Source of the DNA: Candidatus Omnitrophota bacterium
Lineage (GTDB): Bacteria; Omnitrophota; Omnitrophia; Omnitrophales; Aquincolibacteriaceae
NCBI GenBank assembly: GCA_903819565.1
Contig: CAIJDY010000097.1
Span: 1-47,502 of the forward strand
Length of the DNA stretch: 47,502 bases
Direction: 5' to 3'
This document shows, piece by piece, positions 8,664-31,642 of the stretch. The position numbers and the translations under genes were made by a program. The notes under the pieces were generated by a model that saw nothing but the letters and a program-made list of their open reading frames with translations, was not told the origin of the DNA and did no database searches. Position 1 is the stretch's first letter; every line of letters starts with the position of its first letter.

Positions 8664-8696
8664 ACGGACCTCCTTCCGGTTTGGGACATGTTTGGG

Positions 8697-8726
8697 ATTC
8701 TAGCACAAGCCGCGAAACAATGTCAC
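8697..8726 (-). promoter_or_regulatory. candidate sigma70 promoter for the secreted-protein operon
   Basis: On the minus strand: TGACAT, a 17-nt spacer, then TAGAAT (with TG two bases upstream), about 35 nt before the RBS of 8663. Confidence 0.4.
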
Positions 8727-8828
8727 TTCGTGAAAAACGTCCGCGGGATGCCGGGATCTTTCCGTCAACTTTACGCGGCGGCCTGTCGATATTGAAATAG
8801 TGCTGTGTCACAGTTTCTTTGCAGGGGC

Positions 8829-8885
8829 TGTCATTCCCGCGAAAGCGGGAATCTATGGATCCTCCGGTCAAGCCGGAGGATGACA
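8829..8885 (+). repeat. double-hairpin miniature palindromic repeat, copy 2 (short form)
   Basis: tgtcATTCCCGCgaaaGCGGGAATctatggATCCTCCGGtcaaGCCGGAGGATgaca. Same termini and hairpin order as 40270. Confidence 0.8.
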
Positions 8886-9756: not shown

Positions 9757-9765
9757 CCCAGACGG

Positions 9766-9799
9766 AGCACCGGCAGTTCATGAAAGAGGCCTGGAGGGG
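9766..9799 (+). pseudogene. fossil of the cytosine-deaminase 5-prime end left by the tandem duplication
   Basis: agcaccggcagttcatgaaagaggcctggagggg matches 10661..10706 of the intact gene, apart from a 12-nt segment absent here. Confidence 0.7.
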
Positions 9800-9858
9800 T
9801 TCGTACCGAGTTAGGGGTACACAGTACCAGTTTTTTTATTCTCAAAAGGAAGTGTGCT

Positions 9859-10650
9859 ATGGCGGGGAAGGTCCTTATTATTGACGATGAGCCGGATATC
9901 CTTTTGGTCCTGAAGGCCCGGCTTGAAGCGGCACAGTATCAGGTTGTGACGACCCAGAACGGTTATGAGGCCCTTGAAAAATTCAAGGCCGAGAAACCGG
10001 ACCTCATTGTTACGGACGTCATGATGCCCGGGATGACGGGCTACGAGTTTTTTGAGGCCCTCCGGGGGTTGGGGGGCGAAGCTTCCCTGGTCCCGGTGAT
10101 CGTGATGTCGGCACGGGGGAGCATGGGGCAACTCTTTGACAAATGGGCGATCCGCTGTTTCATGCCCAAGCCTCTGGACATGCCGGCGTTCCTCCGGGAG
10201 GTCGAAGCCGCGATCGCGTCCCGCGCGGTCCAGGAAAAGGGACTTCACCGGAAACCGGGAGAGACGGGCAAGGTCCTGATGGCGGGGGTCAGCGAGTACG
10301 AGATGCGCAACATGAGCCAGTTCCTGGAATCCCGGGGCTTTATCGTGCTGCAGGCCCTGGATGAAAGGGACGCGGCGAAGGCGGCGCGGAAAGAATGGCC
10401 GAACTTTATTCTTTTTGAGTACTGGGAGGACGATGCCCGGTTCGATTCCCTGGCGCTTTTCAGATTTCTCACGGCTTCTCCCGACACGAAAAATATCCCC
10501 TGCGCGGTTTTTTGCAACGCCGCGCTTCGGCTTGATGCCGCCAGGCATTTTACGAACAAGAACATTCTCGGTTTTACGAGCGTGAAGGACCTTCTTCAAA
10601 AATTGGAAGTTCTCTTGCGGCTTCCGGAATTCAAAAGGAGCGGCCCATGA
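9859..10650 (+). CDS. response regulator, REC plus pseudo-receiver (paralog 2)
   Basis: Collinear with 8962..9756 over its full length (MAGKVLIIDDEP..., IVTDVMMPGMTG..., LPEFKRSG at the end). Start codons are 897 bp apart. Confidence 0.8.
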   Translation: MAGKVLIIDDEPDILLVLKARLEAAQYQVVTTQNGYEALEKFKAEKPDLIVTDVMMPGMTGYEFFEALRGLGGEASLVPVIVMSARGSMGQLFDKWAIRCFMPKPLDMPAFLREVEAAIASRAVQEKGLHRKPGETGKVLMAGVSEYEMRNMSQFLESRGFIVLQALDERDAAKAARKEWPNFILFEYWEDDARFDSLALFRFLTASPDTKNIPCAVFCNAALRLDAARHFTNKNILGFTSVKDLLQKLEVLLRLPEFKRSGP

Positions 10651-11485: not shown

Positions 11486-11554
11486 CCCCCCGGGGTTGGA
11501 CGGGGACTTTGTCGCTACGGAAGCCTTGTCCGTCGCGCCGTTCCTCGAAAAAAA

Positions 11555-11582
11555 TTCACAAACAAAGAAATTCGGCTATAAT
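11555..11582 (+). promoter_or_regulatory. candidate sigma70 promoter of nfnAB
   Basis: TTCACA, a 16-nt spacer, then TATAAT, 22 nt upstream of the nfnA start. Confidence 0.5.
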
Positions 11583-11604
11583 CGCCCCGATCACGGGGGC
11601 GCGC

Positions 11605-12432
11605 ATGTATCCGATCCTTACGAAGACGAAGCTGAATAACAACGTGGAAGAAATGGTGATCCGCGCGCCGTATGTCGCGCGGCATTGCGAGCCGGGCCAG
11701 TTCATCATCCTCCGCGTGGATGACGAGGGCGAGCGCGTTCCTCTTACGATCGCCGAATACAACCGTGAGCAAGGCTCCGTTTCTATCATCTATCAAGTCG
11801 CCGGCTACACGACCCGGAAGCTCAGTGAAAAAAACGCCGGCGAAGCGATCGCTGATTTCGTGGGCCCCCTGGGACAACCCACGGAACTTCATCCTCTCGA
11901 GCGTGTGATCGGGATCGGCGGCGGGGTCGGTGCCGCGCCTCTTTATCCCCAGCTCAGGAAACTCAGCGAGATGGGGACCTCGGTGGACCTCATCCTCGGC
12001 GCGCGCAACAAAGATCTTATCATCCTCGAGGAAAAATTCTCCAAATTCTGCAAAAATATCTATGTCACGACCGATGACGGGAGTTACGGGACCAAGGGCC
12101 TTGTGACGGAAAAACTTAAGGCGCTTGTCGAAGCGGGCGAGAAGTATGACGAGGTCATCGCCATCGGACCGGTGATCATGATGAAGTTCGTCAGCCTTCT
12201 TACGAAGACGTGGAATCTCAAGACCAATGTTTCTTTAAATCCCATCATGGTGGACGGGACCGGCATGTGCGGCGGCTGTCGCGTGACGGTCGGCGGCCAA
12301 ACCAAATTCGCCTGCGTGGACGGTCCCGACTTTGACGGCCATCAGGTGGATTATGACGAGCTGATGCGACGGCAGGGGATGTATAAATCCGAAGAAGCCC
12401 ATTCCTGCAAAGTCGGACTTAAGAGCGCCTAA
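11605..12432 (+). CDS. nfnA: NfnA / sulfide dehydrogenase beta-like ferredoxin-NADP reductase subunit (PyrK-like)
   Basis: Start at MYPILTKTKL. RVPLTIAEY FAD-binding barrel, GIGGGVGAAPLYPQ NAD(P) site, and a C-terminal GTGMCGGCRV...FACVDGPDF [2Fe-2S] motif. Confidence 0.8.
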   Translation: MYPILTKTKLNNNVEEMVIRAPYVARHCEPGQFIILRVDDEGERVPLTIAEYNREQGSVSIIYQVAGYTTRKLSEKNAGEAIADFVGPLGQPTELHPLERVIGIGGGVGAAPLYPQLRKLSEMGTSVDLILGARNKDLIILEEKFSKFCKNIYVTTDDGSYGTKGLVTEKLKALVEAGEKYDEVIAIGPVIMMKFVSLLTKTWNLKTNVSLNPIMVDGTGMCGGCRVTVGGQTKFACVDGPDFDGHQVDYDELMRRQGMYKSEEAHSCKVGLKSA

Positions 12433-12433
12433 A

Positions 12434-13840
12434 ATGCCTCCCAACATGAGTCCCAAGAAAGTTCCCATCCCGGAGCAGGCCCCCGAAGAGAGGATCAAGA
12501 ATTTCAAGGAGGTCGCGCTCGGCTATACGCCGGAACAGGCTAAGGAAGAGGCCACGCGCTGCCTGCAGTGCAAAACGCGTCCTTGTGTCGCCGGCTGTCC
12601 GGTCAACGTGGGAATACCCGAATTCATTAAAAAAGTCGGGGAAGGGGATTTTGAAGGGGCCTCCCGGATCCTCTCCAGTGAGAATTGTCTTCCCGCGGTC
12701 TGCGGCCGCGTCTGCCCGCAGGAAACCCAGTGCGAAGTCCTTTGCGTGCGCGGTAAAAAGGGGGAACCGGTCGCGATCGGTCGCCTGGAACGTTTTGTGG
12801 CGGATTACGCCATGGAAAATATGCCGCAGGTGATCCCCGAGATCAAAAAGAACGGCATCAAGGTCGCGATCGCGGGAGGCGGGCCGGCGGGGCTGACTTG
12901 CGCCGGAGAGCTCGCGCGGCTGGGTTACGACGTGACGATCTTTGAGGCGCTTCACGCCCTCGGCGGTGTCCTGATGTACGGGATCCCGGAGTTCCGCCTG
13001 CCGAAACGGCTTGTCGCAAAAGAAATTGCGACCGCTCTCAATCTCGGTGTCAAGATCGAGAAGAATGTGATCATCGGGAAATCGATCAAGGTGGACGAAC
13101 TTTTCGCGGAAGGTTTTCAAGCGGTTTTCATCGGATGCGGCGCCGGGCTTCCGTCCTTTATGAAGATTGAAGGCGAGAACTTGAACGGCGTTTATTCCGC
13201 GAATGAATTTCTGACCCGGACCAATCTGATGAAGGCCTATGATTTTCCGAACGTCCCCACGCCGGTCAAGATTGGCAAGCGCGTGGCGGTCGTCGGCGGC
13301 GGTAATGTGGCGATGGACGCGGCCCGGACCGCCAGGCGGCTCGGCGCCGAGGAGGTCTATATCGTTTACCGCCGGAGCGAGACAGAGCTTCCGGCCCGCG
13401 TGGAAGAGATCCATCACGCGAAGGAAGAGGGGGTCATTTTTCAGCTTTTACGCAATCCCGTAAAGATCCTCGGCAAGGACGGCTGGGTTGCGGCGATGGA
13501 GTGCGTGGAGATGGAACTGGGCGAGCCCGATGAATCCGGACGCCGGCGTCCTGTCGTCAGAAAAGGGAGCAATTTTACTTTTCCGGTCGAGACGGTCATT
13601 ATCGCCATCGGCGGAACGCCGAACCCTTTGATCCGTCAGACCACGCCGGGACTCGAGACCCAGAAGTGGGGCGGCATCATCGTGGACGAAGCGACCATGA
13701 AGACCTCCAAGGAAGGCGTTTACGCGGGCGGCGATATCGTGACCGGCGCCGCGACTGTCATTCTGGCGATGGGCGCGGGGAAGACCGCGGCGCGCGCGAT
13801 CCACGAAGCGCTGCAGAAAAAAATGAACGTCATTTCGTAA
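12434..13840 (+). CDS. nfnB: NfnB / GltD-like NADPH-dependent oxidoreductase subunit
   Basis: CLQCKTRPCVAGCPV...AVCGRVCPQETQCEVLC Fe-S motifs. VAIAGGGPAGLTCA and VAVVGGGNVAMDAART dinucleotide folds. 468 aa, directly after nfnA. Confidence 0.85.
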   Translation: MPPNMSPKKVPIPEQAPEERIKNFKEVALGYTPEQAKEEATRCLQCKTRPCVAGCPVNVGIPEFIKKVGEGDFEGASRILSSENCLPAVCGRVCPQETQCEVLCVRGKKGEPVAIGRLERFVADYAMENMPQVIPEIKKNGIKVAIAGGGPAGLTCAGELARLGYDVTIFEALHALGGVLMYGIPEFRLPKRLVAKEIATALNLGVKIEKNVIIGKSIKVDELFAEGFQAVFIGCGAGLPSFMKIEGENLNGVYSANEFLTRTNLMKAYDFPNVPTPVKIGKRVAVVGGGNVAMDAARTARRLGAEEVYIVYRRSETELPARVEEIHHAKEEGVIFQLLRNPVKILGKDGWVAAMECVEMELGEPDESGRRRPVVRKGSNFTFPVETVIIAIGGTPNPLIRQTTPGLETQKWGGIIVDEATMKTSKEGVYAGGDIVTGAATVILAMGAGKTAARAIHEALQKKMNVIS

Positions 13841-13950: not shown

Positions 13951-14343
13951 ATGCCCAGGATACTGATCATTGATGATGACGCGGATATTGTCGAAGCCAT
14001 GCGGGTGGTGCTGGAAAAACGCGGGTACCAGGTAATCATCGCGGTCGACGGCAACGAGGGCCTGGACAAGGCCCGCGCGGAAAAACCCGACGCGATCATC
14101 TTGGACGTGATGATGCCCGGGCTGGACGGTTTTGAAGTGGCGCGGGAACTCAAAGGGGACCCCCAGACGAAGCATATTTCCATCCTCATGCTGACCGCGA
14201 TCAAGGACAAGACGGGTTTTGATTTCCAGAAAGAGACGAGCGACCCTGACTGGCTCCCGGTCGATGATTACTGCAACAAGCCGCTGGACTACGAGATCCT
14301 TCTGGAAAAGATCGATCATTTCGTGCGCAATAAAAAACGCTGA
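13951..14343 (+). CDS. single-domain response regulator (CheY-like)
   Basis: ILIIDDDADI, IILDVMMPGLDG, LTAIKD and a conserved K (CNKPLD). 130 aa. Confidence 0.85.
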   Translation: MPRILIIDDDADIVEAMRVVLEKRGYQVIIAVDGNEGLDKARAEKPDAIILDVMMPGLDGFEVARELKGDPQTKHISILMLTAIKDKTGFDFQKETSDPDWLPVDDYCNKPLDYEILLEKIDHFVRNKKR

Positions 14344-14378
14344 GGTTCCCGCCGGGGATAACAGAGGTCTCGCGGTCA

Positions 14379-15713
14379 ATGAAGAGCCTACCCAGAGATA
14401 ACGCGATCGAAACGAAACAGGTGGAGCAAGTTTTTTGGCTCACCCGCCTGCGATGGGTCGCGGTCCTCGGTGTTTTCGCTACCATCTTCACCGTTTCCCG
14501 GTTTTTTCAGGTCTCTCTGGAGGTCCGGCCGCTTTATACCGTGGCGGTCTTTCTAGCGGTCTACAACGGGCTGTTCGCGTGGCTGGTCGCGGTCCTGCAG
14601 GGACGCCGGTTCTACAAGACGATGAAGCTCATCGCGAACCTGCAGATCTTGCTGGACCTGACCTGCCTGGCTTTTCTGATCCATTTTTCTGGCGGCGTGG
14701 AAAATCCCTTCTATTTTTATTTCATTTTCCACATCATCATCGCCGGGATCCTGCTGTCCCGTCGCGAAACCTTTATCCTGGCGACCTATGCTGTCCTTAT
14801 TTTTCTCGTGATCATCCTGGCGGAGCAGCGCGGTCTTCTGCGGCATTATTGCCTCCCTGGGGTCTTCAAGGTTTCCCTGCACGAGAATTTCATTTATGTC
14901 CTGGGAGTTTCGTTCGTCTTTGTCAGCACGATGTACATCGCCACATACCTGACCACTTCGATCTCGAACCGGCTTCGGGAACGGGAACGCAGTTTGACGG
15001 ACGCCAATGAACTGCTGGCCGAAAAGGACCGGATCAAGAGTGAATACGTTCTGCGCGTTACCCATGACCTGAAAGAGGACCTCGCGGCCATCCATACCTG
15101 CATCGAGCCCGTCCGGAAAGGGCTTACGGGGCCGTTGAACGACGAGCAGACCAACCTTTTGGGGCGGGCCAAGGAACGAAGCAAACAGCTCATCGTTTAT
15201 GTCGACGCGCTTCTCGAGATCACGCGGCTGAAACTGACCGAAAAACTGGAAATGGTCGAATTTTCAGTGGCCGAACTGATCCGCGAGATCGCGGACTCGA
15301 TCGCTCCCGTGGCGTCGCAAAAGAGTTTGACCTTTGAAGTCCGGATATCTCCCGGGATCCCGCTTCTCAAAGGGGTGCGCGTTTACGTTCAGGAAGCCCT
15401 GCTGAACATCCTGAAGAATTCCCTGAAATACACGCTCGAAGGAGGACAGGTCACGTTGCAGGTCCAGAGCGACGGACAGCGGTTGCAGGTCAAGGTCACG
15501 GACACCGGGATCGGGGTCCCGCCCGAGGACCTGCCGAAGATCTTCACGGAATTTTACCGCGCCAGGAACGCGAAGGCCTTGTACAAAAAAGGAACAGGGC
15601 TGGGACTCTCCATCGCCAAGAAGATCGTGGAGATGCACCGGGGCGAGATCGGGATAGAATCCCGGCTCGGCAAAGGGACCTGCGTGAGTTTCGCGATCCC
15701 TCTGATCTCCTGA
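14379..15713 (+). CDS. membrane sensor histidine kinase (about 6 TM, HisKA + HATPase_c)
   Basis: Multiple N-terminal TM helices, H-box RVTHDLKEDL, N-box LLNILKNSLKY, G1 VTDTGIGV and G2 GTGLGLSIA. Confidence 0.85.
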   Translation: MKSLPRDNAIETKQVEQVFWLTRLRWVAVLGVFATIFTVSRFFQVSLEVRPLYTVAVFLAVYNGLFAWLVAVLQGRRFYKTMKLIANLQILLDLTCLAFLIHFSGGVENPFYFYFIFHIIIAGILLSRRETFILATYAVLIFLVIILAEQRGLLRHYCLPGVFKVSLHENFIYVLGVSFVFVSTMYIATYLTTSISNRLRERERSLTDANELLAEKDRIKSEYVLRVTHDLKEDLAAIHTCIEPVRKGLTGPLNDEQTNLLGRAKERSKQLIVYVDALLEITRLKLTEKLEMVEFSVAELIREIADSIAPVASQKSLTFEVRISPGIPLLKGVRVYVQEALLNILKNSLKYTLEGGQVTLQVQSDGQRLQVKVTDTGIGVPPEDLPKIFTEFYRARNAKALYKKGTGLGLSIAKKIVEMHRGEIGIESRLGKGTCVSFAIPLIS

Positions 15714-15757
15714 TCCCCGCGCGTTTTTTTACGCGGACGGTCCTCCGGCCGAAAAAA

Positions 15758-15785
15758 TTGACATTTTGATAAAAAAGATTAGGAT
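15758..15785 (+). promoter_or_regulatory. candidate sigma70 promoter of hydrogenase operon 1
   Basis: TTGACA, a 16-nt spacer, then TAGGAT in the AT-rich spacer after the kinase gene. Confidence 0.45.
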
Positions 15786-15838: not shown

Positions 15839-16396
15839 TTGAATACTCCGGAAGCGAAAACTCAGGACCCGAAAAATCCTTCCAAGAATTGCGGCTGTCA
15901 GGCCACCGAAGAGGACATGATCCGAAGCCTCGACGCGGTGATCGACGGTTTCGCCAAGACCGACGGCGCCCTGATCCCGATCCTCCAAACGGCCCAGAAC
16001 CTTCTGGGATATCTTCCCGCCAGCGTTCTCAAACATATCAGCGTGCGCCTGAAGCTCCCTTACAGCGAAGTGACGGGCGTCGTCAGCTTTTATTCTTTTT
16101 TCTCCACCGTTCCCCGCGGCAAGCACGTTATCCGGGTTTGTCTCGGGACTGCCTGCTACGTCCGCGGCGGCAAGGAAGTCCTGGAAGCGTTCAAGAAGAA
16201 CCTCAAGATCAACGTTGGCGAAACGACGGCGGACCGGATGTTCTCCCTGGAGGTCGGACGCTGCTTTGGCGCCTGCGGCCTGGCGCCGGTGGCGATGGTC
16301 AATGACGACGTTCACCAGCGGGTGAAGTCGGCCAAGATCCGGGACCTGATCAGCCAGTACCAGCACGAAGGCGAAGACGTGAAGGAGGCCCGGTAA
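15839..16396 (+). CDS. nuoE: NuoE-like [2Fe-2S] subunit of hydrogenase 1 (HydC/HndA type)
   Basis: LIPILQTAQ...GYLP, CLGTACYVRG and GRCFGACGLAPV cysteine motifs of the NuoE thioredoxin-like [2Fe-2S] fold. The start is a TTG and therefore uncertain. Confidence 0.8.
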   Translation: MNTPEAKTQDPKNPSKNCGCQATEEDMIRSLDAVIDGFAKTDGALIPILQTAQNLLGYLPASVLKHISVRLKLPYSEVTGVVSFYSFFSTVPRGKHVIRVCLGTACYVRGGKEVLEAFKKNLKINVGETTADRMFSLEVGRCFGACGLAPVAMVNDDVHQRVKSAKIRDLISQYQHEGEDVKEAR

Positions 16397-16397
16397 A

Positions 16398-19300
16398 ATG
16401 TCCCTTCCAAGGATCGCGTCGGCGCAGGACCTGAACAAAATCCAAAAAACGGTGCTGGACGAACAGAAGCGGAACGCCTCTAAAAAGCAGATCCTCCTCT
16501 GTTCGGGCGCCGGGTGTATCGCTTCCGGATCCCTCCTGCTCAAAAACGCCCTCGAGAAAAAGATCAAAGAGGAGAACCTTGATGTCGAGGTCGTGGAGAC
16601 CGGCTGTCTCGGGCCTTGCGCGCAGGGCCCCGTGATCGTGGTCAATCCCGATCAGACCTTCTACGAGAACCTCAAGCCGGAGGACGCCCGCGATATTGTG
16701 GACGAACACCTGCGGAAGGGAAAACCGGTCGAAAGGCTTTGCCCGCGGGATGTGAAGGACGAGAAACCGGTGCTGAAGCAAAACGACATGGATTTTTTCC
16801 AGAAGCAGATCAAGATCGTTCTCCGGAACTGCGGCAGGATCGATCCGCTGAAGATCGGGGACTACATCGCGCAGGACGGCTACCAGGCGCTCGCGAAGGC
16901 GCTCACTTCGATGAAGCCGGACGAAGTGATCAAGCAGATCAAAAAGTCCGGACTTCGCGGCCGCGGAGGCGCGGGATTCTCTACGGGACTGAAATGGGAA
17001 TTGACCCGGGTCGCTCCGGGCGACGTGAAATACGCGATCTGCAACGCGGACGAAGGAGACCCGGGAGCATTCATGGACCGCAGCGTTCTCGAGGGGGATC
17101 CTCACAGCGTGATCGAAGGCATGGTCATCGCCGCTTACGCGATCGGGGCCTCGCGCGGTTTCGTTTATGTCCGTGCCGAATATCCTCTCGCGGTTTCGCG
17201 CCTGACCAAGGCGATCGAGCATGCCAAGGAATCGGGACTTCTCGGCGACAACATTCTCGGGACCGGATTCAATTTCGATCTGGAGATCCGGATGGGTTCC
17301 GGGGCTTTTGTCTGCGGAGAGGAAACAGCGCTGATGCGTTCCATAGAAGGAAAGCGCGGCGAACCCCGACCCCGTCCGCCCTTTCCGGCCCAAAAAGGCC
17401 TCTGGGACAAACCAAGCCTCCTGAATAACGTCGAAACCTACGCCAATGTTCCCGTCATCCTTCTCAAGGGCGCGGATTGGTACGCTTCGTACGGGACCGC
17501 GGCAAGCAAGGGGACCAAGGTTTTTGCGCTGGCCGGCGCAGTGAAGAACACCGGGCTTGTGGAAGTGCCGATCGGAACTCCGTTGGGGGAGCTGATCTAC
17601 GAGATCGGCGGCGGGATCAAAGGCGGCAAGAAATATAAGGCCGCCCAGATCGGCGGTCCTTCGGGCGGATGCATTCCCAAAGAATTCCTGAACGTCCCGC
17701 TGGACTATAAAAATCTCGAAGAGCTCGGCGCCATCATGGGTTCGGGCGGCCTTATCGTGATGGATGAGGATTCCTGCATGGTGGACGTCGCCAGGTTCTT
17801 CCTGGATTTCGTCCAGGACGAATCCTGCGGCAAGTGTGTGCCGTGCCGCGTCGGGACCAAGCGCATGCTGGAGATCCTGGAGCGCATTTGCTCGGGGCAG
17901 GGCGAGGAAGGCGATGTCGAAAAATTGATCCGGCTGGGCGGTCAGATCAAAGAGACGTCGCTTTGCGGGCTTGGGCAGACGGCGCCGAACCCCGTTCTTT
18001 CCACGATCCGCCATTTCCGCAAGGAATACGACCAGCATATCCGTGAAAAACACTGTGAGGCCGGAGTTTGTCCTTCGCTGGTGCGCGCGCCGTGCCAGAG
18101 CGCGTGCCCGGCCGGAGTGGACGTTCCGGGTTTTGTGTCGCTCGTGGGGGAGAAGCGTTATGCCGAGGCCCTGCGGCTTCATCGCGAGCGGAATCCTTTC
18201 GCGGCGGTCTGCGCCCGTGTGTGTTTTCATACCTGTGAAGAAAAATGTCGGCGCGCGAGTTTGGATGATTCCGTTTCCATTCGCGGGATCAAGCGGTTCA
18301 TGGTGGACCAGGAAGTCATTATCCAGATTCCCGAAGTGCACCATAACGAGCAGAACGCCGGCCGGAAGATCGCGATCATCGGGGCCGGTCCCGCGGGGCT
18401 TTCCTGCGGCTACTTTTTGGCCCGTCTGGGCTACCGTCCGACGATTTTTGAATCCGAGCCGCGGCCTGGCGGGATGCTCGTTCAGACGATCCCGGCTTAC
18501 CGGTTGCCGCGGGAGACTTTGGCCCGCGAGATCCGCATGATCGAACAATTGGGCGTTACGATCGAGACGGGCAAACATCTCGGAAAGGATTTCACCCTTC
18601 AGGAACTTCGCGACAAAAAATATGACGCGATCTTTATCGGGATCGGGGCGCCGGGCTCTTACGGCCTGGGAGTCGCCGGGGAAGACGCCGACGGCGTGGT
18701 GATGGCGGTCCCGTTCCTCAAGCAGTACAACATCCGGGGTTCGGTCCCGATCGGGAAAACAGTGATCGTGGTCGGAGGCGGTAACGCGGCCATCGACGCG
18801 GCCCGCACGGCGCTTCGCCTCGGGGCCGAGGCCGTGACGGTCCTGTACCGCCGCAGCCAGGAAGAGATGCCGGCTTATGCCGAAGAGGTCCGTGAGGCCC
18901 TTTACGAAGGGGTCGTTCTCCTGCAGTTGACGCACCCGATGGAGATCCTGAAGACCGCGGACAACAAGATCTCCGGGGTGAAGTGCATGACCATGAAGCT
19001 CGGGGATTATGACCGGAGCGGACGGCGGCGGCCGACCGCCGACGGGGCGGACCAGTTCGTTCTGGACGCGGATCAGGTGATCGTGGCGATCGGTCAAACG
19101 CTGAGCCCGGGGAAAATTTTTGATCTCAAGGATGCCGAACTGAAAATGACCTCCACCGGATTTATTTACGCGGATTCCGTGACCGGACAGACCTCCGTCC
19201 CGGGGATCTTCGCGGGCGGCGACGCGACGACGGGTCCGTGGTCGGTGGTTTCCGCGATCGGAGCGGGAGAGATCGCGGCCGTGGGGATCGACCAGTTCCT

Positions 19301-19538
19301 CACGGGCGAGAACCACGCTTTTTGGCGTGAGGAAAAGACCGTGGACACGGATTTTGATCCGGACGTGGATCCTGTCCCATATCCTCGCGAACCGGTCCGT
19401 TCGATCTCCGTCGAAAAGCGAAAATACAATTTTGATGAAGTGGAACTTTCCTGGAACGAGAACGTGGCGCAACGCCAGGCCAAGCGGTGCCTTCGCTGCG
19501 ATTACGGTAAGTCGGTGACGCACCGGGGGCACAAATAA
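16398..19538 (+). CDS. fusion protein: thioredoxin-like [2Fe-2S] + NuoF-like FMN/NAD(H)/[4Fe-4S] module + C-terminal GltD/NfnB-like FAD/NAD(P)H module
   Basis: N-terminal part: CSGAGCIASG...GCLGPCAQGP, GLRGRGGAGFSTGLKW, CNADEGDPGAF and ESCGKCVPCRVG (NuoF signatures). From about aa 545: CQSACPAG...AVCARVCFHTCEEKC, IAIIGAGPAGLSCG and VIVVGGGNAAIDAART (GltD/NfnB signatures). One uninterrupted 1046-aa frame. Confidence 0.85.
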   Translation: MSLPRIASAQDLNKIQKTVLDEQKRNASKKQILLCSGAGCIASGSLLLKNALEKKIKEENLDVEVVETGCLGPCAQGPVIVVNPDQTFYENLKPEDARDIVDEHLRKGKPVERLCPRDVKDEKPVLKQNDMDFFQKQIKIVLRNCGRIDPLKIGDYIAQDGYQALAKALTSMKPDEVIKQIKKSGLRGRGGAGFSTGLKWELTRVAPGDVKYAICNADEGDPGAFMDRSVLEGDPHSVIEGMVIAAYAIGASRGFVYVRAEYPLAVSRLTKAIEHAKESGLLGDNILGTGFNFDLEIRMGSGAFVCGEETALMRSIEGKRGEPRPRPPFPAQKGLWDKPSLLNNVETYANVPVILLKGADWYASYGTAASKGTKVFALAGAVKNTGLVEVPIGTPLGELIYEIGGGIKGGKKYKAAQIGGPSGGCIPKEFLNVPLDYKNLEELGAIMGSGGLIVMDEDSCMVDVARFFLDFVQDESCGKCVPCRVGTKRMLEILERICSGQGEEGDVEKLIRLGGQIKETSLCGLGQTAPNPVLSTIRHFRKEYDQHIREKHCEAGVCPSLVRAPCQSACPAGVDVPGFVSLVGEKRYAEALRLHRERNPFAAVCARVCFHTCEEKCRRASLDDSVSIRGIKRFMVDQEVIIQIPEVHHNEQNAGRKIAIIGAGPAGLSCGYFLARLGYRPTIFESEPRPGGMLVQTIPAYRLPRETLAREIRMIEQLGVTIETGKHLGKDFTLQELRDKKYDAIFIGIGAPGSYGLGVAGEDADGVVMAVPFLKQYNIRGSVPIGKTVIVVGGGNAAIDAARTALRLGAEAVTVLYRRSQEEMPAYAEEVREALYEGVVLLQLTHPMEILKTADNKISGVKCMTMKLGDYDRSGRRRPTADGADQFVLDADQVIVAIGQTLSPGKIFDLKDAELKMTSTGFIYADSVTGQTSVPGIFAGGDATTGPWSVVSAIGAGEIAAVGIDQFLTGENHAFWREEKTVDTDFDPDVDPVPYPREPVRSISVEKRKYNFDEVELSWNENVAQRQAKRCLRCDYGKSVTHRGHK

Positions 19539-21310
19539 TGCCGAAGATCTTCATGAACAATAAAGAGATCACGGTCGACACGAACGCCACCATTCTGGAC
19601 GCCGCGCGCTCCACGGGCATCCATATCCCGACACTTTGTTATTACGAAGGCAAGGCCCCGATCGGCGCCTGCCGTGTCTGTCTCGTCGAACTGGAAGGCG
19701 CGCGGACGCTGGTCGCTGCCTGCTCAACACCCGTCGCCGAAGGCATGAAGGTCCATACGAACAACAAGCGGGTCCGCGAAGCGCGCCGGACCGTGGTCGA
19801 GCTCCTTTTAAGCGAGCACGAGGGCAGCTGTCAGTATTGCACGCGCAGCAACGACTGCGAGCTTAAGGCGATCGCGTCCCATCTGGGGATCGAGGACATT
19901 CATTACAAGGGGGAAAAACCGGAGAAGAGGATCGATGAAAGTACGCCCGCTCTGGTCCGGGATTCCGGAAAGTGCATCAAATGCCGCCGTTGCGTGACGG
20001 TTTGCCGCGAAGTCCAGGGCGTCGGCGCGCTCTTTCCGCAAAAGCGCGGGTATAAGACGATGATCGGCCCGGCGTTCGCGATGGACCTTGATTCCGTGGC
20101 CTGCGTCCAGTGTGGCCAATGCGCCGCCATCTGTCCCGTGGGCGCGATCCAGGAAAAGAACGATATTGATAAAGTCTGGGCGGCGCTCGAAGACAAAACA
20201 AAGCATGTGGTCGTTCAGACGGCGCCGGCGATCCGGGCCGCGCTCGGGGAATGCTTCGGCTATCCGCCCGGCACGCTTGTGACGGGGAAAATGGTGACGG
20301 CGTTACGCAGGCTCGGTTTTCACGCGGTCTTTGACACGAATTTTGCGGCGGACCTCACGATCATGGAAGAAGGCACGGAACTCCTGATGCGTCTCAAAAA
20401 GGCGCTTGTGGAGAAAGCGCCGGTCGCACTGCCGATGTTCACGAGCTGCTCGCCGGGTTGGATCAAGTTCGCGGAATATTATTATCCGGAATTCCTGCCG
20501 AATCTTTCCACGTGCAAATCGCCCCAGCAGATGTTCGGGGCGGTCGCCAAGACTTTCTACGCTTCCAAGAAGGGCCTCAAGGCCGAAGACATGATCGTGG
20601 TTTCGGTCATGCCGTGCACGGCCAAAAAATTCGAGGCGCAGCGGCCCGAGATGAATTCCAGCGGCGTGCAGGACGTGGATTATGTGCTGACGACCCGGGA
20701 GCTCGGGTTCATGATCCAGTCCGCGGGGATCGATTTCAAGAGCCTGGAAGACGGTGAGATGGATTCTCCGCTCGGGTTATCGACCGGTGCGGCGGACATT
20801 TTCGCGAACACCGGCGGCGTGATGGTCGCCGCCCTGAGAACGGTTTACGAGATCGTGACCGGAAAGGAATTCCCCGCCGAGGACCTACGCTTGGCTCCGG
20901 TGGAAGGCCTGAAGGGGATCAAGGAAGCTTCTCTGAAGATCACGGGAACGGCTCCGGAATGGAATTTTCTGGAGAACGTGGAGGTTCGGATCGCCGTGGC
21001 GCACGGTCTTGAAAACGCGGGAAAACTGCTGGAGAGCCTTAAAGAAGGAAAGGTCCTGTATCATTTCGTCGAAATCATGACCTGTCCGGGCGGCTGTATC
21101 GGCGGTGGCGGGCAGCCGCGCCACACGGACGACTCCGTGCGCCTGGCGCGCAGCAAGGCGATCTATCAGGAGGACGCCGGCAAAAAGCTCCGGAAATCCC
21201 ACAAGAATCCGCAGGTCCAGGCGCTCTACGACGAATTCCTCAAGGCGCCTCTCGGTGAAAAATCCCACCATCTCCTGCATACGCGGTATCGCGAGCGCTC
21301 AAAAATTTAA
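19538..21310 (+). CDS. hydA: [FeFe]-hydrogenase catalytic subunit 1, atypical L1 motif
   Basis: N-terminal [2Fe-2S] and 2x[4Fe-4S] domains. L2 VMPCTAKKFE and L3 EIMTCPGGCIGGGGQP are canonical, but L1 reads FTSCSPGW. 1-nt overlap with the previous gene (TAATG). Confidence 0.85.
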   Translation: MPKIFMNNKEITVDTNATILDAARSTGIHIPTLCYYEGKAPIGACRVCLVELEGARTLVAACSTPVAEGMKVHTNNKRVREARRTVVELLLSEHEGSCQYCTRSNDCELKAIASHLGIEDIHYKGEKPEKRIDESTPALVRDSGKCIKCRRCVTVCREVQGVGALFPQKRGYKTMIGPAFAMDLDSVACVQCGQCAAICPVGAIQEKNDIDKVWAALEDKTKHVVVQTAPAIRAALGECFGYPPGTLVTGKMVTALRRLGFHAVFDTNFAADLTIMEEGTELLMRLKKALVEKAPVALPMFTSCSPGWIKFAEYYYPEFLPNLSTCKSPQQMFGAVAKTFYASKKGLKAEDMIVVSVMPCTAKKFEAQRPEMNSSGVQDVDYVLTTRELGFMIQSAGIDFKSLEDGEMDSPLGLSTGAADIFANTGGVMVAALRTVYEIVTGKEFPAEDLRLAPVEGLKGIKEASLKITGTAPEWNFLENVEVRIAVAHGLENAGKLLESLKEGKVLYHFVEIMTCPGGCIGGGGQPRHTDDSVRLARSKAIYQEDAGKKLRKSHKNPQVQALYDEFLKAPLGEKSHHLLHTRYRERSKI

Positions 21311-22441: not shown

Positions 22442-22933
22442 ATGAATAAAAAAATGATCGAAGAAGAGATCCGGGAGATCGCGGATTCCTGGAAGGATAA
22501 AGAAGGAAATCTGATCATGGTGCTCCATGAGATCCAGAACCGCTATGGGTACGTGCCGCGCGAAGTTTCGCTAGTCCTTTCCGAGATCCTGGATGTACCG
22601 CTTGCGCGCATTTATGAAGTCATTACCTTTTACCACTTTTTCCGCCTGACACCTCCCGGCAAGATGAAGATCGCGGTGTGCATGGGAACGGCCTGTTACC
22701 TGAAGGGCGGGGCGGAACTCCTGGCGGAACTGGAGCACCTTCTCTGCGTAAAGCCCGGCGAAACGACCAAAGACGGGCAGTTCCAGCTGGAGGTGGTCCG
22801 CTGCCTGGGCTGCTGCGGTCTGGCGCCGGTATTGAAGATCAAGGAAAAGATCTACGGCGGCGTGAAGAAAAAAGACATCGGCGATATTATTGCCCAATAT
22901 TCGGATGAAACCGAGGCGAAAGCGGCCGCCTGA
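22442..22933 (+). CDS. nuoE: NuoE-like [2Fe-2S] subunit of hydrogenase 2 (HndA/HydC type)
   Basis: LIMVLHEIQNRYGYVP, CMGTACYLKG and VRCLGCCGLAPV. Confidence 0.85.
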   Translation: MNKKMIEEEIREIADSWKDKEGNLIMVLHEIQNRYGYVPREVSLVLSEILDVPLARIYEVITFYHFFRLTPPGKMKIAVCMGTACYLKGGAELLAELEHLLCVKPGETTKDGQFQLEVVRCLGCCGLAPVLKIKEKIYGGVKKKDIGDIIAQYSDETEAKAAA

Positions 22934-22952
22934 GGGCGACGCGAGAGGACTT

Positions 22953-23303
22953 ATGGAAAAACTGACGAAAGAAGGGCTGGAGAAACTCCGGCAGCAAGGC
23001 GCGGCGACGGAGAAGAATTACATCAAGGTGGGATTCAGCAGTTGCGGGATCGCCGCTGGGGCGCAGGAGGTCTATGACGTGCTTTGTGAGGAGGCCCGAA
23101 AGCACAACGCGGACGTGGAGATTAAAAAATGCGGTTGCGTCGGGATCTGCTCCGCCGAACCGCTTGTGGAAGTCCGGGTGAAAAATATGCCCCGCGTTTT
23201 TTACGGGAAGGTCGACAAAGACACGGCCATCAAGATCATGGAAAAACATGTGTGCGGGAAGATGCTTGTGAACGATCGGATTTATGATTTGAAGGTTAAT
23301 TGA
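22953..23303 (+). CDS. small thioredoxin-like (2Fe-2S) ferredoxin (HndB-like)
   Basis: 116 aa from MEKLTKEGL, with RBS gagagga. VGFSSCGIAAGAQEVY...IKKCGCVGICSAEPLVEV resembles the N-terminal domain of HydB expressed as a separate protein. Confidence 0.65.
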   Translation: MEKLTKEGLEKLRQQGAATEKNYIKVGFSSCGIAAGAQEVYDVLCEEARKHNADVEIKKCGCVGICSAEPLVEVRVKNMPRVFYGKVDKDTAIKIMEKHVCGKMLVNDRIYDLKVN

Positions 23304-23450
23304 CCTTCTGAATTTTAGAAGGTCATCCTCAGCGAAGCGCTAGATGTGCGGAGCCGAAGGATTTTATTAAGGAAACCCCGCGATTCGTTCCCGCGAAACA
23401 GGGACGAATCGCGGGGTAAGTGGGTCGGGAAATCCCGACCCCTTAATTAA
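23301..23450. repeat. cluster of palindromic repeat units inside the hydrogenase 2 operon
   Basis: Three hairpins: TGACCTTCTgaattttAGAAGGTCA (includes the stop codon), a perfect 16-bp stem CCCCGCGATTCGTTCCCgcgaaacaGGGACGAATCGCGGGG, and GGGTCGGGaaatCCCGACCC. Also contains a gtcatcctcagcgaagcg unit, and ttattaagga / ttaattaagga flank the block. Confidence 0.75.
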
Positions 23451-23463
23451 GGACAGGGAGACC

Positions 23464-25200
23464 ATGGGAAAGACTGTATTCATCAAAGATACGACGATCG
23501 GCGGAAAAGACAAGACGCGGGACATTTACGGGATCTTGCTGGGCATTTTGAGGGAAAGAGGCTTGGAGAACGAGGTTCAGGTGGTCCGCGTCGTGGACAT
23601 TGGGGTGTACGGCCAAGGGGTGGCGATGCGGGTGCTGCCCGAAAATTTTCTTTATTCGCATGTCGAGGAAACAGATATTGCGGGGATCGTGGAGCAAAGT
23701 CTTCTCGCTGGCAAACCGCTGGCGGCCAAGCTCGTTGCGGAAGATTCCAAGCAATTGCGTATCGTGTTACGTAACTGCGGGGTGATCGATCCGGAAAAGA
23801 TTGAGGAATATATCGCGCGGGACGGTTATCAGGCGCTCGCGAAGGTCTTGGGCGACGCGCCGGAAAAGGTCATTCAGGAAATGAAAGCCAGCGGGCTGCG
23901 CGGCCGCGGCGGCGCTGGATTTCCCACCGGATTGAAGTGGGAGTTCACCCGCAAGAGTCCGGGGGACCAGAAGTACATCATTTGCAACGGCGATGAAGGC
24001 GACCCGGGAGCTTACATGGACCGCAGCGTTCTGGAGGGGGACCCTCACTCGGTGATCGAAGGGATGATCATCGGGGGTTACGCGATCGGCGCCTCCAAGG
24101 GCTATTTCTACATCCGGGCGGAATACCCGCTCGCGATCGAAAGGATTGAAAAGGCCATCAAGCAGTGCCATGAGAGCGGTCTGTTGGGAAAGAATATCCT
24201 CGGTTCTTCGTTCAATTTCGACGTGGAGATCCGTTTGGGGGCCGGCGCGTTTGTCTGCGGCGAAGAAACGGCATTGATCGCTTCGATCGAAGGCAAGCGC
24301 GGTTATCCGAGCCCGCGCCCTCCGTTCCCGTCGGTCAAGGGACTGTGGGGAAAACCGACCTGCATCAATAACGTGGAGACGCTGGCGAACATCCCGGTGA
24401 TCCTGTTCAAGGGAGGCGCTTGGTTCGCGGGGATCGGGACCGCGTCCTCCAAAGGCACGAAAGTTTTTGCGGTGACCGGTAAGGTCAAGAATTCCGGGCT
24501 GGTGGAAGTCCCGATGGGAACGACGATCGAGGACATTGTTTACGGGATCGGCGGCGGCGCGATGCCCGGGAAGTCGGTCAAGGCGATCCAGACCGGCGGG
24601 CCGTCGGGCGGGGTGATCCCGAAGGAATATTTCAGGACCAAGGTGGATTACGAGAGCCTTCAGCAGATGGGCTCCATCATGGGGTCCGGCGGCATGATCG
24701 TGATGGACGAGGATGATTGCATGGCGGACATCGCGAAATTTTATCTCGGGTTTTGCGTGGACGAATCCTGCGGGAAATGTGCTCCCTGCCGTATCGGGGG
24801 AACGCAGATGTTGCGACTTCTCAAAAAGGTGACGGAGGGGGAAGGGACGCCCAAGGATCTCGACCAGCTCGAGCAGATCTCTCACGCCATGCAAAAAGCC
24901 TCGCTTTGCGGCCTTGGGCAGACGGCGGCTAATCCCGTACTTTCGACGCTGCATTATTACCGCGCCGAATATGACGCGCACGTGAACAATAAAAAATGCC
25001 CGGCCTGCAAGTGCGCCAAACTGGTCCGGTTCCTGATCCTGAGCGAAAAATGCGTGAAGTGCGGCATGTGTTTCAAGGCGTGCCCGGTCAACGCGATTTC
25101 CGGGAACCGCGAGAGCGGCTATCTGATCGATCAAACGAAATGTATCCGCTGCGGTCAATGTTTCGAGGTCTGTAAACCTCGCGCCATTAATCGCAGTTAA
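23464..25200 (+). CDS. nuoF: NuoF-like subunit of hydrogenase 2 (HndC/HydB type) with C-terminal 2x[4Fe-4S] ferredoxin domain
   Basis: GLRGRGGAGFPTGLKW, CNGDEGDPGAY, ESCGKCAPCRIG, then CVKCGMCFKACP and CIRCGQCFEVC. The first ~95 aa have the thioredoxin-like layout but no cysteines. Confidence 0.9.
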   Translation: MGKTVFIKDTTIGGKDKTRDIYGILLGILRERGLENEVQVVRVVDIGVYGQGVAMRVLPENFLYSHVEETDIAGIVEQSLLAGKPLAAKLVAEDSKQLRIVLRNCGVIDPEKIEEYIARDGYQALAKVLGDAPEKVIQEMKASGLRGRGGAGFPTGLKWEFTRKSPGDQKYIICNGDEGDPGAYMDRSVLEGDPHSVIEGMIIGGYAIGASKGYFYIRAEYPLAIERIEKAIKQCHESGLLGKNILGSSFNFDVEIRLGAGAFVCGEETALIASIEGKRGYPSPRPPFPSVKGLWGKPTCINNVETLANIPVILFKGGAWFAGIGTASSKGTKVFAVTGKVKNSGLVEVPMGTTIEDIVYGIGGGAMPGKSVKAIQTGGPSGGVIPKEYFRTKVDYESLQQMGSIMGSGGMIVMDEDDCMADIAKFYLGFCVDESCGKCAPCRIGGTQMLRLLKKVTEGEGTPKDLDQLEQISHAMQKASLCGLGQTAANPVLSTLHYYRAEYDAHVNNKKCPACKCAKLVRFLILSEKCVKCGMCFKACPVNAISGNRESGYLIDQTKCIRCGQCFEVCKPRAINRS

Positions 25201-25243
25201 TCCAAGACGGGTTCTTATAATTCATTAGAGAGGGAGAAGTCTC

Positions 25244-31637: not shown

Positions 31638-31642
31638 TAATT

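Follow-up and report, generated by a model that had tools for sequence, protein, structure and literature searches.

A HydB subunit of an [FeFe] hydrogenase with a predicted NADP(H) module apparently in place of its B3/B4 domain in a Candidatus Omnitrophota bacterium

The middle gene of a hydrogenase operon in a 47,502 nt stretch of Candidatus Omnitrophota DNA (contig CAIJDY010000097.1; the whole stretch is referred to below as the window) would specify a BfuB/HydB variant belonging to a trimeric HydC–HydB–HydA [FeFe] hydrogenase. In this variant a NuoF-like core that appears intact (B5 [2Fe-2S], FMN/NAD(H) site and B1 [4Fe-4S]) is followed by a permuted GltD-type module predicted to carry two [4Fe-4S] clusters, FAD and an NADP(H) site. 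Sequence comparison indicates that this module replaces the C-terminal 2x[4Fe-4S] B3/B4 domain on the same hinge loop; in canonical HydB it is B3/B4 that hands low-potential electrons to ferredoxin. Our preferred reading, to which we assign a probability of roughly one half, is that an NADP(H) port has been wired into ferredoxin's usual position, which would yield a hydrogenase coupled to NAD(H) and NADP(H) alike. The layout itself is already known and is widespread in anaerobes: in the part of their article available to us, Zheng & Huang (2024; mSystems, PMC11406978) describe it from genomes, with no biochemistry, as the sub-type I BfuB of group A3 [FeFe] hydrogenases and likewise state that B3/B4 is replaced; the window is thus one more instance.

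The operon comprises the following features:
15758..15785, + strand: promoter-like site, TTGACA-16-TAGGAT (consensus scan, 10/12 matches; a pattern match only)
15839..16396, + strand: HydC1 / BfuC, a NuoE-like, thioredoxin-like [2Fe-2S] subunit with the C1 cluster (2Fe-2S_thioredx 5.7e-49, full profile)
16398..19538, + strand: fused HydB/BfuB::GltD-type gene (1046 aa, six Pfam domains, 119 full-length homologues)
19538..21310, + strand: HydA1 / BfuA, M3-type [FeFe] hydrogenase catalytic subunit (Fe_hyd_lg_C 6.2e-97, Fe_hyd_SSU, Fer2_4, NADH-G_4Fe-4S_3)

The promoter-like site sits upstream of the operon, in a 125-nt gap after a histidine kinase gene. HydC1, a member of the HoxE/NuoE family (NCBIfam) of uncertain start (185 aa from the TTG at 15839, 159 aa in another gene call), stops one base before the fusion begins, and the stop of the fusion overlaps the start of HydA1. 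The latter scored 883 bits against NCBIfam NF040763 (cutoff 765), and possesses H-cluster motifs P1–P3 (TSCSP, as in A. woodii HydA1, 7q4v_A; MPCTAK; EIMTCPGGCIGG) together with the M3 N-terminal cluster domains. It has no NADPH-module insert, the module being fused instead to the BfuB C-terminus (Pfam). A canonical HydC2–HydB2–HydA2 operon, with B3/B4, directly adjoins the fusion operon, which suggests that the two have different jobs. The gene downstream of hydA is Rex; no match to the Rex operator (TTGTGAA-N6-TTCACAA, ≤ 3 mismatches) was found in the window, and no conserved Rex linkage was seen among 60 related loci, where Rex lay within 5 kb of one fusion (L050), with a further match at a locus not scored as an intact fusion (L060). 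As an alternative classification we considered HydDB [FeFe] group A2 (putative, glutamate-synthase-linked), in which a GltD-type protein is likewise linked to an [FeFe] hydrogenase. This was rejected, as the HydDB rule excludes NuoF-containing proteins and reads the gene downstream of hydA; the fusion therefore falls in A3.

A reading made from the sequence alone had proposed a single 1046-aa, in-frame NuoF::GltD-type fusion within a HydC–HydB–HydA operon, and the ORF list and Pfam agree on this. The frame has an ATG start and zero internal stops in translation, and the domain search returned NuoF-type and then GltD-type modules in one chain, namely 2Fe-2S_thioredx (aa 26–103, 3.8e-9), the Complex1_51K FMN domain (aa 181–352, 2.1e-45), SLBB (aa 376–424), NADH_4Fe-4S (aa 463–547, 9.7e-35), Fer4_20, or DPD domain II (aa 550–639, 1.1e-20), and Pyr_redox_2 (aa 657–957, 2.7e-30). 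Among the best 120 relatives listed, 119 were at least 1000 aa long, with 68–93 % identity to the fusion (85–88 % for the best-named relatives). Such a chain might also arise if a missed stop or frameshift near 18000–18100 had merged a hydB and a gltD-like gene. Against this, junction residues C553, C558, C566 and C570 are kept in all 119 full-length homologues and the same junction occurs in 60 independent species genomes, the identical protein is encoded on independent contigs, and the GltD module has no N-terminal segment and start of its own, because it is permuted. As the junction is conserved across phyla, we therefore do not regard the fusion as an assembly artefact, the chance of which is negligible. 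A 1060-aa antisense ORF was also rejected as a gene, being accounted for by codon usage.

Our survey of its spread found the continuous fusion frame in 60 loci, each from a different species genome, with record titles spanning about 15 phylum-level lineages. NuoE lies upstream in nearly all of these loci, whilst the partners of the fused BfuB are hydrogenase or formate-dehydrogenase-like. In a neighbour-joining tree of the NuoF core, built without bootstrap and from biased sampling, fused and unfused HydBs interleave. Each of the remaining cluster cysteines is kept in at least 118 of the 119 full-length homologues and, as judged from these alignments, selection maintains all cofactor ligands of the fusion across many phyla. 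Within the fusion, these regions were delineated:
16473..16706, + strand: N-terminal thioredoxin-like [2Fe-2S] domain, the B5 site (Pfam aa 26–103; C35, C40, C70, C74)
16938..17453, + strand: NuoF-type FMN/NAD(H) domain (Complex1_51K 2.1e-45; GRGGAGF and CGEE motifs)
17784..18038, + strand: four-helix bundle with B1 [4Fe-4S] (NADH_4Fe-4S 9.7e-35; C477, C480, C483, C523)
18036..18092, + strand: hinge, or former Zn (B2) site, and junction (H547, C553, C558; Gly556)
18093..18314, + strand: DPD-II-type dicluster region (C566, C570, C605, C609, C613, C617; Lys632; Fer4_20 1.1e-20)
18366..19268, + strand: FAD fold (IIGAGPAGL...E685) and NADP(H) fold (GGGNAAID...YRRS) (Pyr_redox_2 2.7e-30)
19386..19505, + strand: permuted C-terminal tail (NFDEV...AKRC1031LRC1034), giving the first CxxC of the dicluster motif

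The NuoF-type module had been described as complete, and as a NuoF it is: the B5 ligands are kept in 118–119 of the 119 homologues, the B1 ligands are invariant among them, and alignments A1 and A2 show no variation in the residues of GRGGAGF and CGEE. As a HydB it is not, for the B3/B4 ferredoxin domain is missing; neither a Fer4 match (Pfam) nor a CxxCxxCxxxC motif was found after B1, whereas in HydB2, the paralogue from the adjoining operon, Pfam places a Fer4 dicluster at aa 527–571. The Pfam and HydB2 comparisons thus overturn the view that the module was added to a full HydB, as it stands in place of B3/B4. Of the features that mark a Bfu-family BfuB/HydB, FMN/B1, B5 and an operon with BfuC and BfuA are present and B3/B4 is absent. 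When compared with HydABC of A. woodii and T. kivui (7q4v, 8a6t) and of T. maritima (7p5h), which has the same NuoE-like and M3 HydA partners, the N-terminal half aligned with E-values of 5e-234 to 1e-192 and gave target-normalised Foldseek TM values of 0.81–0.92. The fusion differs from HydABC in lacking B3/B4, in having Gly at one of three hinge cysteines, and in bearing a ∼480-residue FAD/NADP(H) module instead. By eye, C512-P-A-C515-K-C517 of HydB2 corresponds to C553-E-A-G-V-C558 of the fusion, so that, of the three Cys and one His that make up a Zn/B2 site, H547, C553 and C558 are retained and Gly556 occupies the position of HydB2 C515; because one Zn-hinge cysteine is lost, the fusion hinge may work differently. 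Alignments to HydB structures in the PDB end at fusion residue 564–566, that to A. woodii HydB stopping at chain residue 544, just past the 530–542 loop. In T. kivui HydABC, truncation of the HydB C-terminus lowers bifurcation (PMC10021017), and that position therefore serves the ferredoxin branch.

The separate NfnAB pair noted earlier upstream of the operon is present (NfnA 11509..12432, NfnB 12434..13840; about 2.5 kb away). The module shares with this NfnB, and with NfnAB of T. maritima (4ylf) and P. furiosus (5jca), its fold, two [4Fe-4S] clusters, FAD and NADPH, and yet the N-terminal CxxC, the Glu ligand and the NfnA partner of NfnAB are all lacking in the fusion. The suggestion that it is a copy of the neighbouring NfnB consequently failed, and a recent duplication was rejected, given a core identity of 41 %, a different topology and Lys, not Glu, as ligand. 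The difference in topology is a circular permutation that locates the first ∼45 residues of NfnB at the C-terminus of the fusion: positions 3–49 of its last 61 residues match residues 3–46 of the window's NfnB at 34 % identity (pairwise E 1e-8). The same tail is present in 9bov_A and 8oh5_C, and its C1031 and C1034 are invariant among the 119 homologues. In place of the canonical N-terminal CxxCx4CxxxCP order, the module starts with C566xxxC570P and has its CxxC at 1031/1034, and the Fer4_20 profile is matched only from position 16 onward. Lys632 takes the place of the fourth ligand to the proximal cluster; it is invariant in 119/119 homologues and lies opposite K170 in the region that aligns with StnC 101–170. 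The window's own NfnB has Glu here, and Glu or His replaces the Lys in some distant fusion clusters.

These traits identify the module, from its sequence, as one of the Stn/NfnABC kind (S. ovata 8oh5, C. saccharolyticus 9bov, T. sibiricus 9n5u), whose NfnL-like insert (101–567) matches it end to end (Csac NfnA, E 1.4e-112; Tsib NfnA; StnC 101–566). Canonical NfnB (4ylf_B) gave 6.3e-91, covering only positions 21–429 of the 502-residue fragment queried, and Foldseek ranks the relatives of the module in the same order. Besides the permutation and the Lys ligand, the fusion and Stn/NfnABC share an NADPH motif and a HydBC-type core. The systems differ in that the Stn/NfnABC module is inserted in a NuoG-like BfuA with no H-cluster in the complex, whilst in the fusion it sits on BfuB in the place of B3/B4 and BfuA is the hydrogenase. 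Within Stn/NfnABC, electrons from this module go to the mid-potential entry (along the BfuA chain to B1) rather than to the low-potential exit, and the potentials of its clusters may be ill-matched to a branch like that of ferredoxin. A second pyridine-nucleotide site, as had been predicted, is supported by the motifs: in addition to the FMN/NADH domain, the chain has FAD and NADPH folds (GxGxxG...E and GGGNxAxD...YRR) that resemble those of NADPH-using Csac NfnA and StnC, with a GGGN...YRR stretch common to all three in residue-level alignment and Y817, R818 and R819 invariant in alignments A1 and A2.

Given a module of this kind, its FAD would be an ordinary two-electron/one-electron converter between NADP(H) and the two clusters, with no second bifurcation site. 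An Nfn-like bifurcating FAD had also been suggested, and would make the enzyme a Hyd–Nfn hybrid with two bifurcation centres, with ferredoxin docking at the distal cluster of the module and with four substrates (H2, NAD, NADP and ferredoxin). Such a hybrid is proposed in the accessible part of Zheng & Huang (2024; PMC11406978) and agrees with the homology to NfnB and with the ability of NfnAB to reduce ferredoxin through the pair of [4Fe-4S] clusters in NfnB, the subunit bearing the ferredoxin site (PMC10482914); Greening et al. (2024; PMC11216029), who report archaeal hybrid hydrogenases whose HydB includes a glutamate-synthase domain, guess at ferredoxin binding at the GltA domain of that related HydB. 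R702, the equivalent of NfnB R201 and StnC R239, is conserved too, but it is kept in bifurcating and non-bifurcating modules alike, such that a bifurcating FAD would still fit the sequence. What makes the hybrid improbable is that the proximal cluster has Lys rather than the Glu thought to hold the NfnB cluster at low potential, that the permuted topology is that of StnC, whose FAD was shown experimentally not to bifurcate and whose K170 is needed for activity (PMC10482914), and that the operon has no NfnA-like partner: the upstream NfnA has its own NfnB, and NfnA lies within 5 kb in only 1/60 related fusion loci.

From these features we infer nucleotide specificities, electron path, energetic coupling and physiological direction as follows. 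The main path would run from the H-cluster through the HydA clusters and B1 to FMN (NAD+/NADH), in either direction, and the usual branch from the mobile C1 of HydC via B3/B4 to ferredoxin would be redirected to the dicluster–FAD module and on to NADP+/NADPH. A connection between the dicluster and C1/B1 is assumed on the basis of chain position; in the AF2 model (pTM 0.55) the linker (aa 559–565) has pLDDT below 50 and the packing of the module on the core is not defined. The reaction would be 2 H2 + NAD+ + NADP+ <-> NADH + NADPH + 2 H+, with NADP(H) in ferredoxin's place, for which we found no literature report in any hydrogenase. A ferredoxin-independent bifurcating/confurcating [FeFe] hydrogenase, with NADP(H) on the low-potential branch and H2 obligatorily coupled to both nucleotide pools, is a tentative extension that we consider possible but doubtful. 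Rather unlikely, in turn, is a non-bifurcating enzyme in which FMN (NADH) and the FAD module (NADPH) are independent ports on one cluster chain, using either nucleotide with no energetic coupling and no ferredoxin. This would be akin to HydABC of Syntrophomonas wolfei, which, according to the portion of the source available, is NADH-dependent, lacks B3/B4 and, like other enzymes without B3/B4, does not bifurcate. The NCBIfam name of HydA1 ('NADH-dependent [FeFe] hydrogenase, group A6') points the same way, as does the Stn-type module, which in the setting where it is known acts simply as an NADPH input (PMC10482914). However, B5 and most of the hinge, features that accompany bifurcating Bfu cores, are strictly conserved, H2 formation with NADH as the sole donor is possible only when H2 is very low, and the module is placed exactly at the exit of the low-potential branch and not on the BfuA chain.

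As far as the available part of PMC11406978 goes, the fusion shows no architectural difference from sub-type I BfuB: the Pfam architecture and an M3-type HydA1 neighbour were both found, the domain order is the same, with DPD_II and a C-terminal FAD/NAD(P) domain for B3/B4, and the gene order is C-B-A. A difference is that the fusion's own operon has no BfuD gene. Relatives at ∼70 % identity come from Hydrogenedens, Spirochaetes, Planctomycetota and Phycisphaerae, largely phyla named there, whilst the permutation and the Lys ligand are not mentioned in that part. In a Foldseek search of the PDB no chain covered both halves of the fusion. The earlier statement that no hydrogenase of this layout has been characterized still holds for the literature we found, where no biochemically characterized enzyme with a NuoF::GltD layout appears and all mentions are in silico.

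Bfu-type enzymes are central to the turnover of H2 where oxygen is absent, and the way in which they split electron pairs remains a matter of debate. A natural variant in which an NADPH-flavin module stands in for the ferredoxin branch would be useful in experiments on which parts of the Bfu core determine the low-potential branch. If NADP(H) does replace ferredoxin, the H2 metabolism of Omnitrophota, Spirochaetota, Planctomycetota, Hydrogenedentota and others would be tied directly to the NADPH pool, and reconstructions that label these genes as 'bifurcating A3, NADH + ferredoxin' would be wrong. Furthermore, if the coupled reading is true, the formate-dehydrogenase-like partners found in other lineages would gain this coupling through the same fused BfuB.

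Translation of the forward strand gave a single ORF, 1046 codons long, opening with ATG and free of internal stops, along which six Pfam domains follow one another in order. The features of this fusion gene and of its operon (operon 1) are given below.

Features of the fusion and its surroundings
16398..19538 (+), fusion gene
aa 26-103 of the fusion, thioredoxin-like [2Fe-2S] domain (Pfam)
aa 181-352, NuoF FMN domain (Pfam, 2.1e-45)
aa 376-424, SLBB (Pfam)
aa 463-547, NuoF [4Fe-4S] helical bundle (Pfam, 9.7e-35)
aa 550-639, dicluster domain II of dihydropyrimidine dehydrogenase/GltD (Pfam, 1.1e-20)
aa 657-957, Pyr_redox_2, two dinucleotide folds (Pfam, 2.7e-30)
15839..16396, NuoE-like gene upstream, ending one base before the fusion start
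19538..21310, M3-type [FeFe] hydrogenase gene (NCBIfam NF040763, 883 bits, cutoff 765), its start overlapping the fusion stop
11509..13840, NfnA and NfnB, upstream of the fusion
Downstream of operon 1, Rex-like regulator gene, then the second Hyd operon

The sequence-only reading had described a single 1046-aa NuoF::GltD-type frame within a hydrogenase operon, flanked by NuoE-like and hydA genes, with a separate NfnAB pair upstream, and both descriptions are borne out; we put the probability that the domain layout is as identified at about 0.95. On the reverse strand, a 1060-aa ORF (16350..19532) spans the entire fusion gene in antisense orientation, its codons in register with those of the sense frame. 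The sense gene contains zero TTA, CTA or TCA codons, whereas its neighbours would predict about 6.7 (P about 0.001). As lower-GC homologues contain 13-54 such codons, the antisense frame is not conserved, and we rejected it as a gene in favour of a codon-usage effect. Several response-regulator genes, together with one for a PilS-like 6TM histidine kinase (8962..10650 and 13951..15713, forward strand), surround NfnAB and extend to just before operon 1. The interval from the kinase gene to hydC1 contains a GC-rich stretch with a T-run after it (about 15718-15745), and a promoter-like site was found by pattern at 15758-15785, upstream of operon 1.

A homologue search covered 5.8 billion proteins, with figures drawn from the best 120 of at least 8000 candidates. 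Among these best matches 119 of 120 were at least 1000 aa long, with identities of 68-93%, and those named came from Omnitrophota, Spirochaetes, Planctomycetota, Hydrogenedens and Chitinispirillaceae. The junction cysteines C553, C558, C566 and C570 were invariant in all 119 long homologues listed, each remaining cluster cysteine was retained in at least 118 of them, and the identical fusion protein was encoded on independent contigs. Moreover, in a survey of at least 80 loci (one genome per GTDB species, the sample being biased toward relatives of the query) the fusion was continuous in at least 60, among them, by record title, Spirochaetota, Planctomycetota, Verrucomicrobiota, Bacteroidota, Bacillota, Chloroflexota, Thermodesulfobacteriota, Acidobacteriota, Armatimonadota, Gemmatimonadota and Omnitrophota, as well as a Lokiarchaeon and another archaeon. 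The fusion is real and well conserved, and an assembly artefact is ruled against.

Clustered at 50%, the full-length fusion family comprised more than a dozen clusters, with identity down to 35%. In several distant clusters (35-42% identity; proteins P0128, P0131, P0134, P0137, P0146, P0148, P0162, P0194 and P0255) the GRGGAGF FMN motif is gone, often together with the B1 CxxCxxC motif, and some of these proteins carry an extra C-terminal ferredoxin-like extension; by their motifs they look like pseudo-NuoF scaffolds joined to a live GltD module. Four further proteins (P0224, P0226, P0181 and P0230) hold the module outside the full fusion, including proteins of ~650 aa in which it is joined to the B1 helical bundle alone. 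The module may also exist by itself (~490 aa), and such stand-alone cases may reflect gene calls cut short. A rough neighbour-joining tree of NuoF cores (no bootstrap, biased sampling) placed unfused Firmicute HydBs among fused ones, a hint that B3/B4 and the GltD module have repeatedly been exchanged for one another.

When compared with the PDB, the C-terminal half of the fusion aligned along its whole length with the NfnL-like insert of Bfu-type transhydrogenases: C. saccharolyticus NfnA residues 101-567 (E 1.4e-112), T. sibiricus NfnA (E 5.9e-105) and S. ovata StnC residues 101-566 (E 9.9e-97). Canonical NfnB (T. maritima 4ylf_B, E 6.3e-91) matched the 502-residue query at residues 21-429 only. 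The extra stretch aligned in the Bfu-type inserts is the fusion tail, ...NFDEVELSWNENVAQRQAKRC1031LRC1034, the equivalent of which is N-terminal in the NfnB of the window (...NFKEVALGYTPEQAKEEATRC43LQC46KTRPC51VAGC55P; 34% identity, pairwise E 1e-8). Of the four cysteines of the first motif, numbers 3 and 4 (C566xxxC570P) open the module, and numbers 1 and 2 close it; by this alignment of tail to N-terminus, it is circularly permuted relative to NfnB/GltD, the topology also seen in StnC and Bfu-type NfnA. NfnB has Glu as the fourth ligand to its FAD-proximal cluster; in StnC this role falls to Lys170, whose replacement (K170A, K170C) causes a severe loss of activity (PMC10482914). Lys632 of the fusion aligns with this residue and is invariant in 119/119 long homologues listed, whereas the window NfnB has Glu there. 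Identity over the shared core is 45% to C. saccharolyticus NfnA, 41% to StnC and 41% to the window NfnB, and the neighbouring NfnB was therefore rejected as a recent source. As such, the earlier suggestion that the module is a paralogous copy of the adjacent NfnB module does not agree with its permutation, its Lys in place of Glu or its core identity. The second pyridine-nucleotide site suggested in the same reading fares better, as in its NADPH-fold motif, GGGNAAIDAARTALRLGA..VTVLYRRS, the fusion essentially matches the NADPH-using C. saccharolyticus NfnA and StnC. Foldseek ranked 9bov_A, 8oh5_C and 9n5u_A above P. furiosus NfnL for the C-terminal half, and found no solved chain spanning both halves of the fusion (query-normalised TM at most 0.50).

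In canonical bifurcating HydB the C-terminal domain is B3/B4, a 2x[4Fe-4S] unit resembling bacterial ferredoxin. HydB2 of operon 2 (23464..25200) has this domain (Fer4 matches at aa 527-571), whilst no B3/B4-type motif was found in the fusion by Pfam or by reading of the sequence; after the B1 bundle the latter runs H547-IREKH-C553-EAGV-C558-PSLVRAP-C566-QSA-C570-P directly into the GltD-type dicluster region. Thus, the GltD module had been correctly recognized, but it substitutes for B3/B4 rather than being added to a complete HydB. Alignments to solved HydB chains stop at fusion residues 564-566, equivalent to A. woodii HydB residue 544, just past the extended loop 530-542 that, with a Zn site, joins the four-helix bundle to B3/B4 (PMC10021017; PMC9499530). 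The hinge of HydB2 has a His followed by C512-x2-C515-x-C517; the fusion retains H547, C553 and C558, with Gly556 at the middle-cysteine position. An AlphaFold2 model (mean pLDDT 80) had a pTM of 0.55 and pLDDT below 50 at aa 559-565, on which basis the module is predicted to hang on a flexible hinge, its placement relative to the core being undefined in the model.

The gene context was surveyed in at least 60 fusion loci, one genome per GTDB species, nearly all with a NuoE-like gene upstream. An H-cluster-bearing hydA adjoins or lies near the fusion in 21/60, including every close-clade locus (C-terminal half at least 60% identical) with enough downstream DNA. In 18/60 a NuoG-like gene without H-cluster stands directly downstream in its place. 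A NuoG-like gene is found elsewhere in the locus in 6/60, and the partner was unclassified in 15/60: five where the downstream NuoG-like gene is on a contig too short to show an H-cluster, and ten where no partner gene was seen, mostly with a contig end near the fusion. Some of the 18 H-cluster-less partners are formate-dehydrogenase-like.

Formate-dehydrogenase/NuoG-like or conduit-like partners in surveyed loci
L022, 8503-9648, ORF stopping at ...VDHCARL
L037, 8046-9122, ORF stopping at ...VDHCARL
L040 (Lokiarchaeon), 8117-8833, 239-aa conduit-like protein
L024, 1808-4483

The stop in L022 and L037 may be an in-frame selenocysteine codon. Given hydA, NuoG-like, formate-dehydrogenase-like and conduit-like partners, the fused BfuB (the HydB-type subunit of the Bfu family) is, by gene context, a general module for several BfuA (HydA-type) partners.

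Five BfuABC sub-types were described in Hydrogenedentota by Zheng & Huang (2024), and the fusion has the layout of their sub-type I BfuB; they name Spirochaetota, Pseudomonadota, Planctomycetota, Verrucomicrobiota, Kiritimatiellota and Thermodesulfobacteriota as further phyla with homologues and stress the absence of biochemistry (PMC11406978). For an archaeal hybrid hydrogenase, Greening et al. (2024) noted that HydB bears a glutamate-synthase domain (PMC11216029), and the HydDB rule 'GltD ... but not NuoF' places a sequence with both domains in A3, not A2. The fusion is thus a further case of an architecture described from genomes in 2024; its layout had been correctly spotted but its novelty over-rated. 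A term search of a large Bfu survey (PMC9304861) found no mention of such a fusion or of GltD, nor did the parts of the literature searched mention the permutation, the Lys ligand tying the module to the Stn/NfnABC lineage, or fused BfuB with non-hydrogenase BfuA partners. Full-text searches found no assay or structure of an enzyme with this layout, in keeping with the earlier statement that no such hydrogenase is known to be biochemically characterized. The fusion is a good candidate for biochemical work, although no surprise to specialists who know the 2024 papers.

Operon 2 (22442..26995, forward strand) encodes HydC2, a small protein, HydB2 and HydA2. HydB2 has B3/B4 and lacks the N-terminal B5 cysteines, and the small protein (within ORF 22890..23303) has a thioredoxin-like [2Fe-2S] cysteine pattern with no Pfam match; by these patterns, B5 looks to be split into a separate HydD/BfuD-like gene, and comparable small ORFs lie upstream of HydB in many related loci. 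HydA2 (25244..26995, forward strand), 46% identical to HydA1, has the P1 H-cluster motif TTCCP versus TSCSP in HydA1 and in A. woodii HydA1. An H-cluster maturase cluster (27519..32731, forward strand) directly follows both hydrogenase operons, in the order Lyase_1 (aspartase-like), HydF, then HydG-like and HydE-like radical-SAM genes. As listed, the HydG ORF (TTG start, 29901) shares about 250 nt with HydF, and the real start therefore probably lies farther downstream.

In Bfu enzymes, electrons of the mid-potential substrate pass via the BfuA clusters to B1, NAD(H) reacts at the FMN, and low-potential electrons are carried off by the mobile C1 domain of BfuC, to B3/B4 and on to ferredoxin; truncation of the HydB C-terminus leaves bifurcating activity low (PMC10021017). 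At the end of its hinge the fusion holds a dicluster-FAD-NADP(H) module as the sole element, and in Stn a module of the same type is a plain NADPH-to-cluster converter with a non-bifurcating FAD (PMC10482914). By analogy with Stn, we rather favour a non-bifurcating NADPH port for the module FAD over a four-substrate Hyd-Nfn hybrid in which this FAD would be a second bifurcating flavin, an idea proposed by Zheng & Huang and raised as one option in the sequence-only reading. From the position of the module and the Stn-type FAD, we propose that NADP(H) would take the position of ferredoxin, with the net reaction 2 H2 + NAD+ + NADP+ <-> NADH + NADPH + 2 H+. That this replacement also involves energetic coupling is a tentative suggestion, somewhat on the doubtful side; its rival is an uncoupled NADH/NADPH hydrogenase, like the S. 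wolfei enzyme, with which the fusion shares the lack of B3/B4. Coupled replacement of ferredoxin by NADP(H) can be set against physiological potentials of about -280 mV for NAD, about -380 mV for NADP and -414 mV for H2 at 1 atm (PMC9304861), from which we calculate a mean of about -330 mV for the NADH/NADPH pair. At this potential, by our own arithmetic, H2 could be evolved up to roughly 100-150 Pa, versus a few Pa with NADH alone. The canonical B3/B4-containing operon lies immediately downstream, as would suit two operons with divided tasks, and, given the higher H2 pressure permitted, such coupling would make physiological sense in a fermenter.
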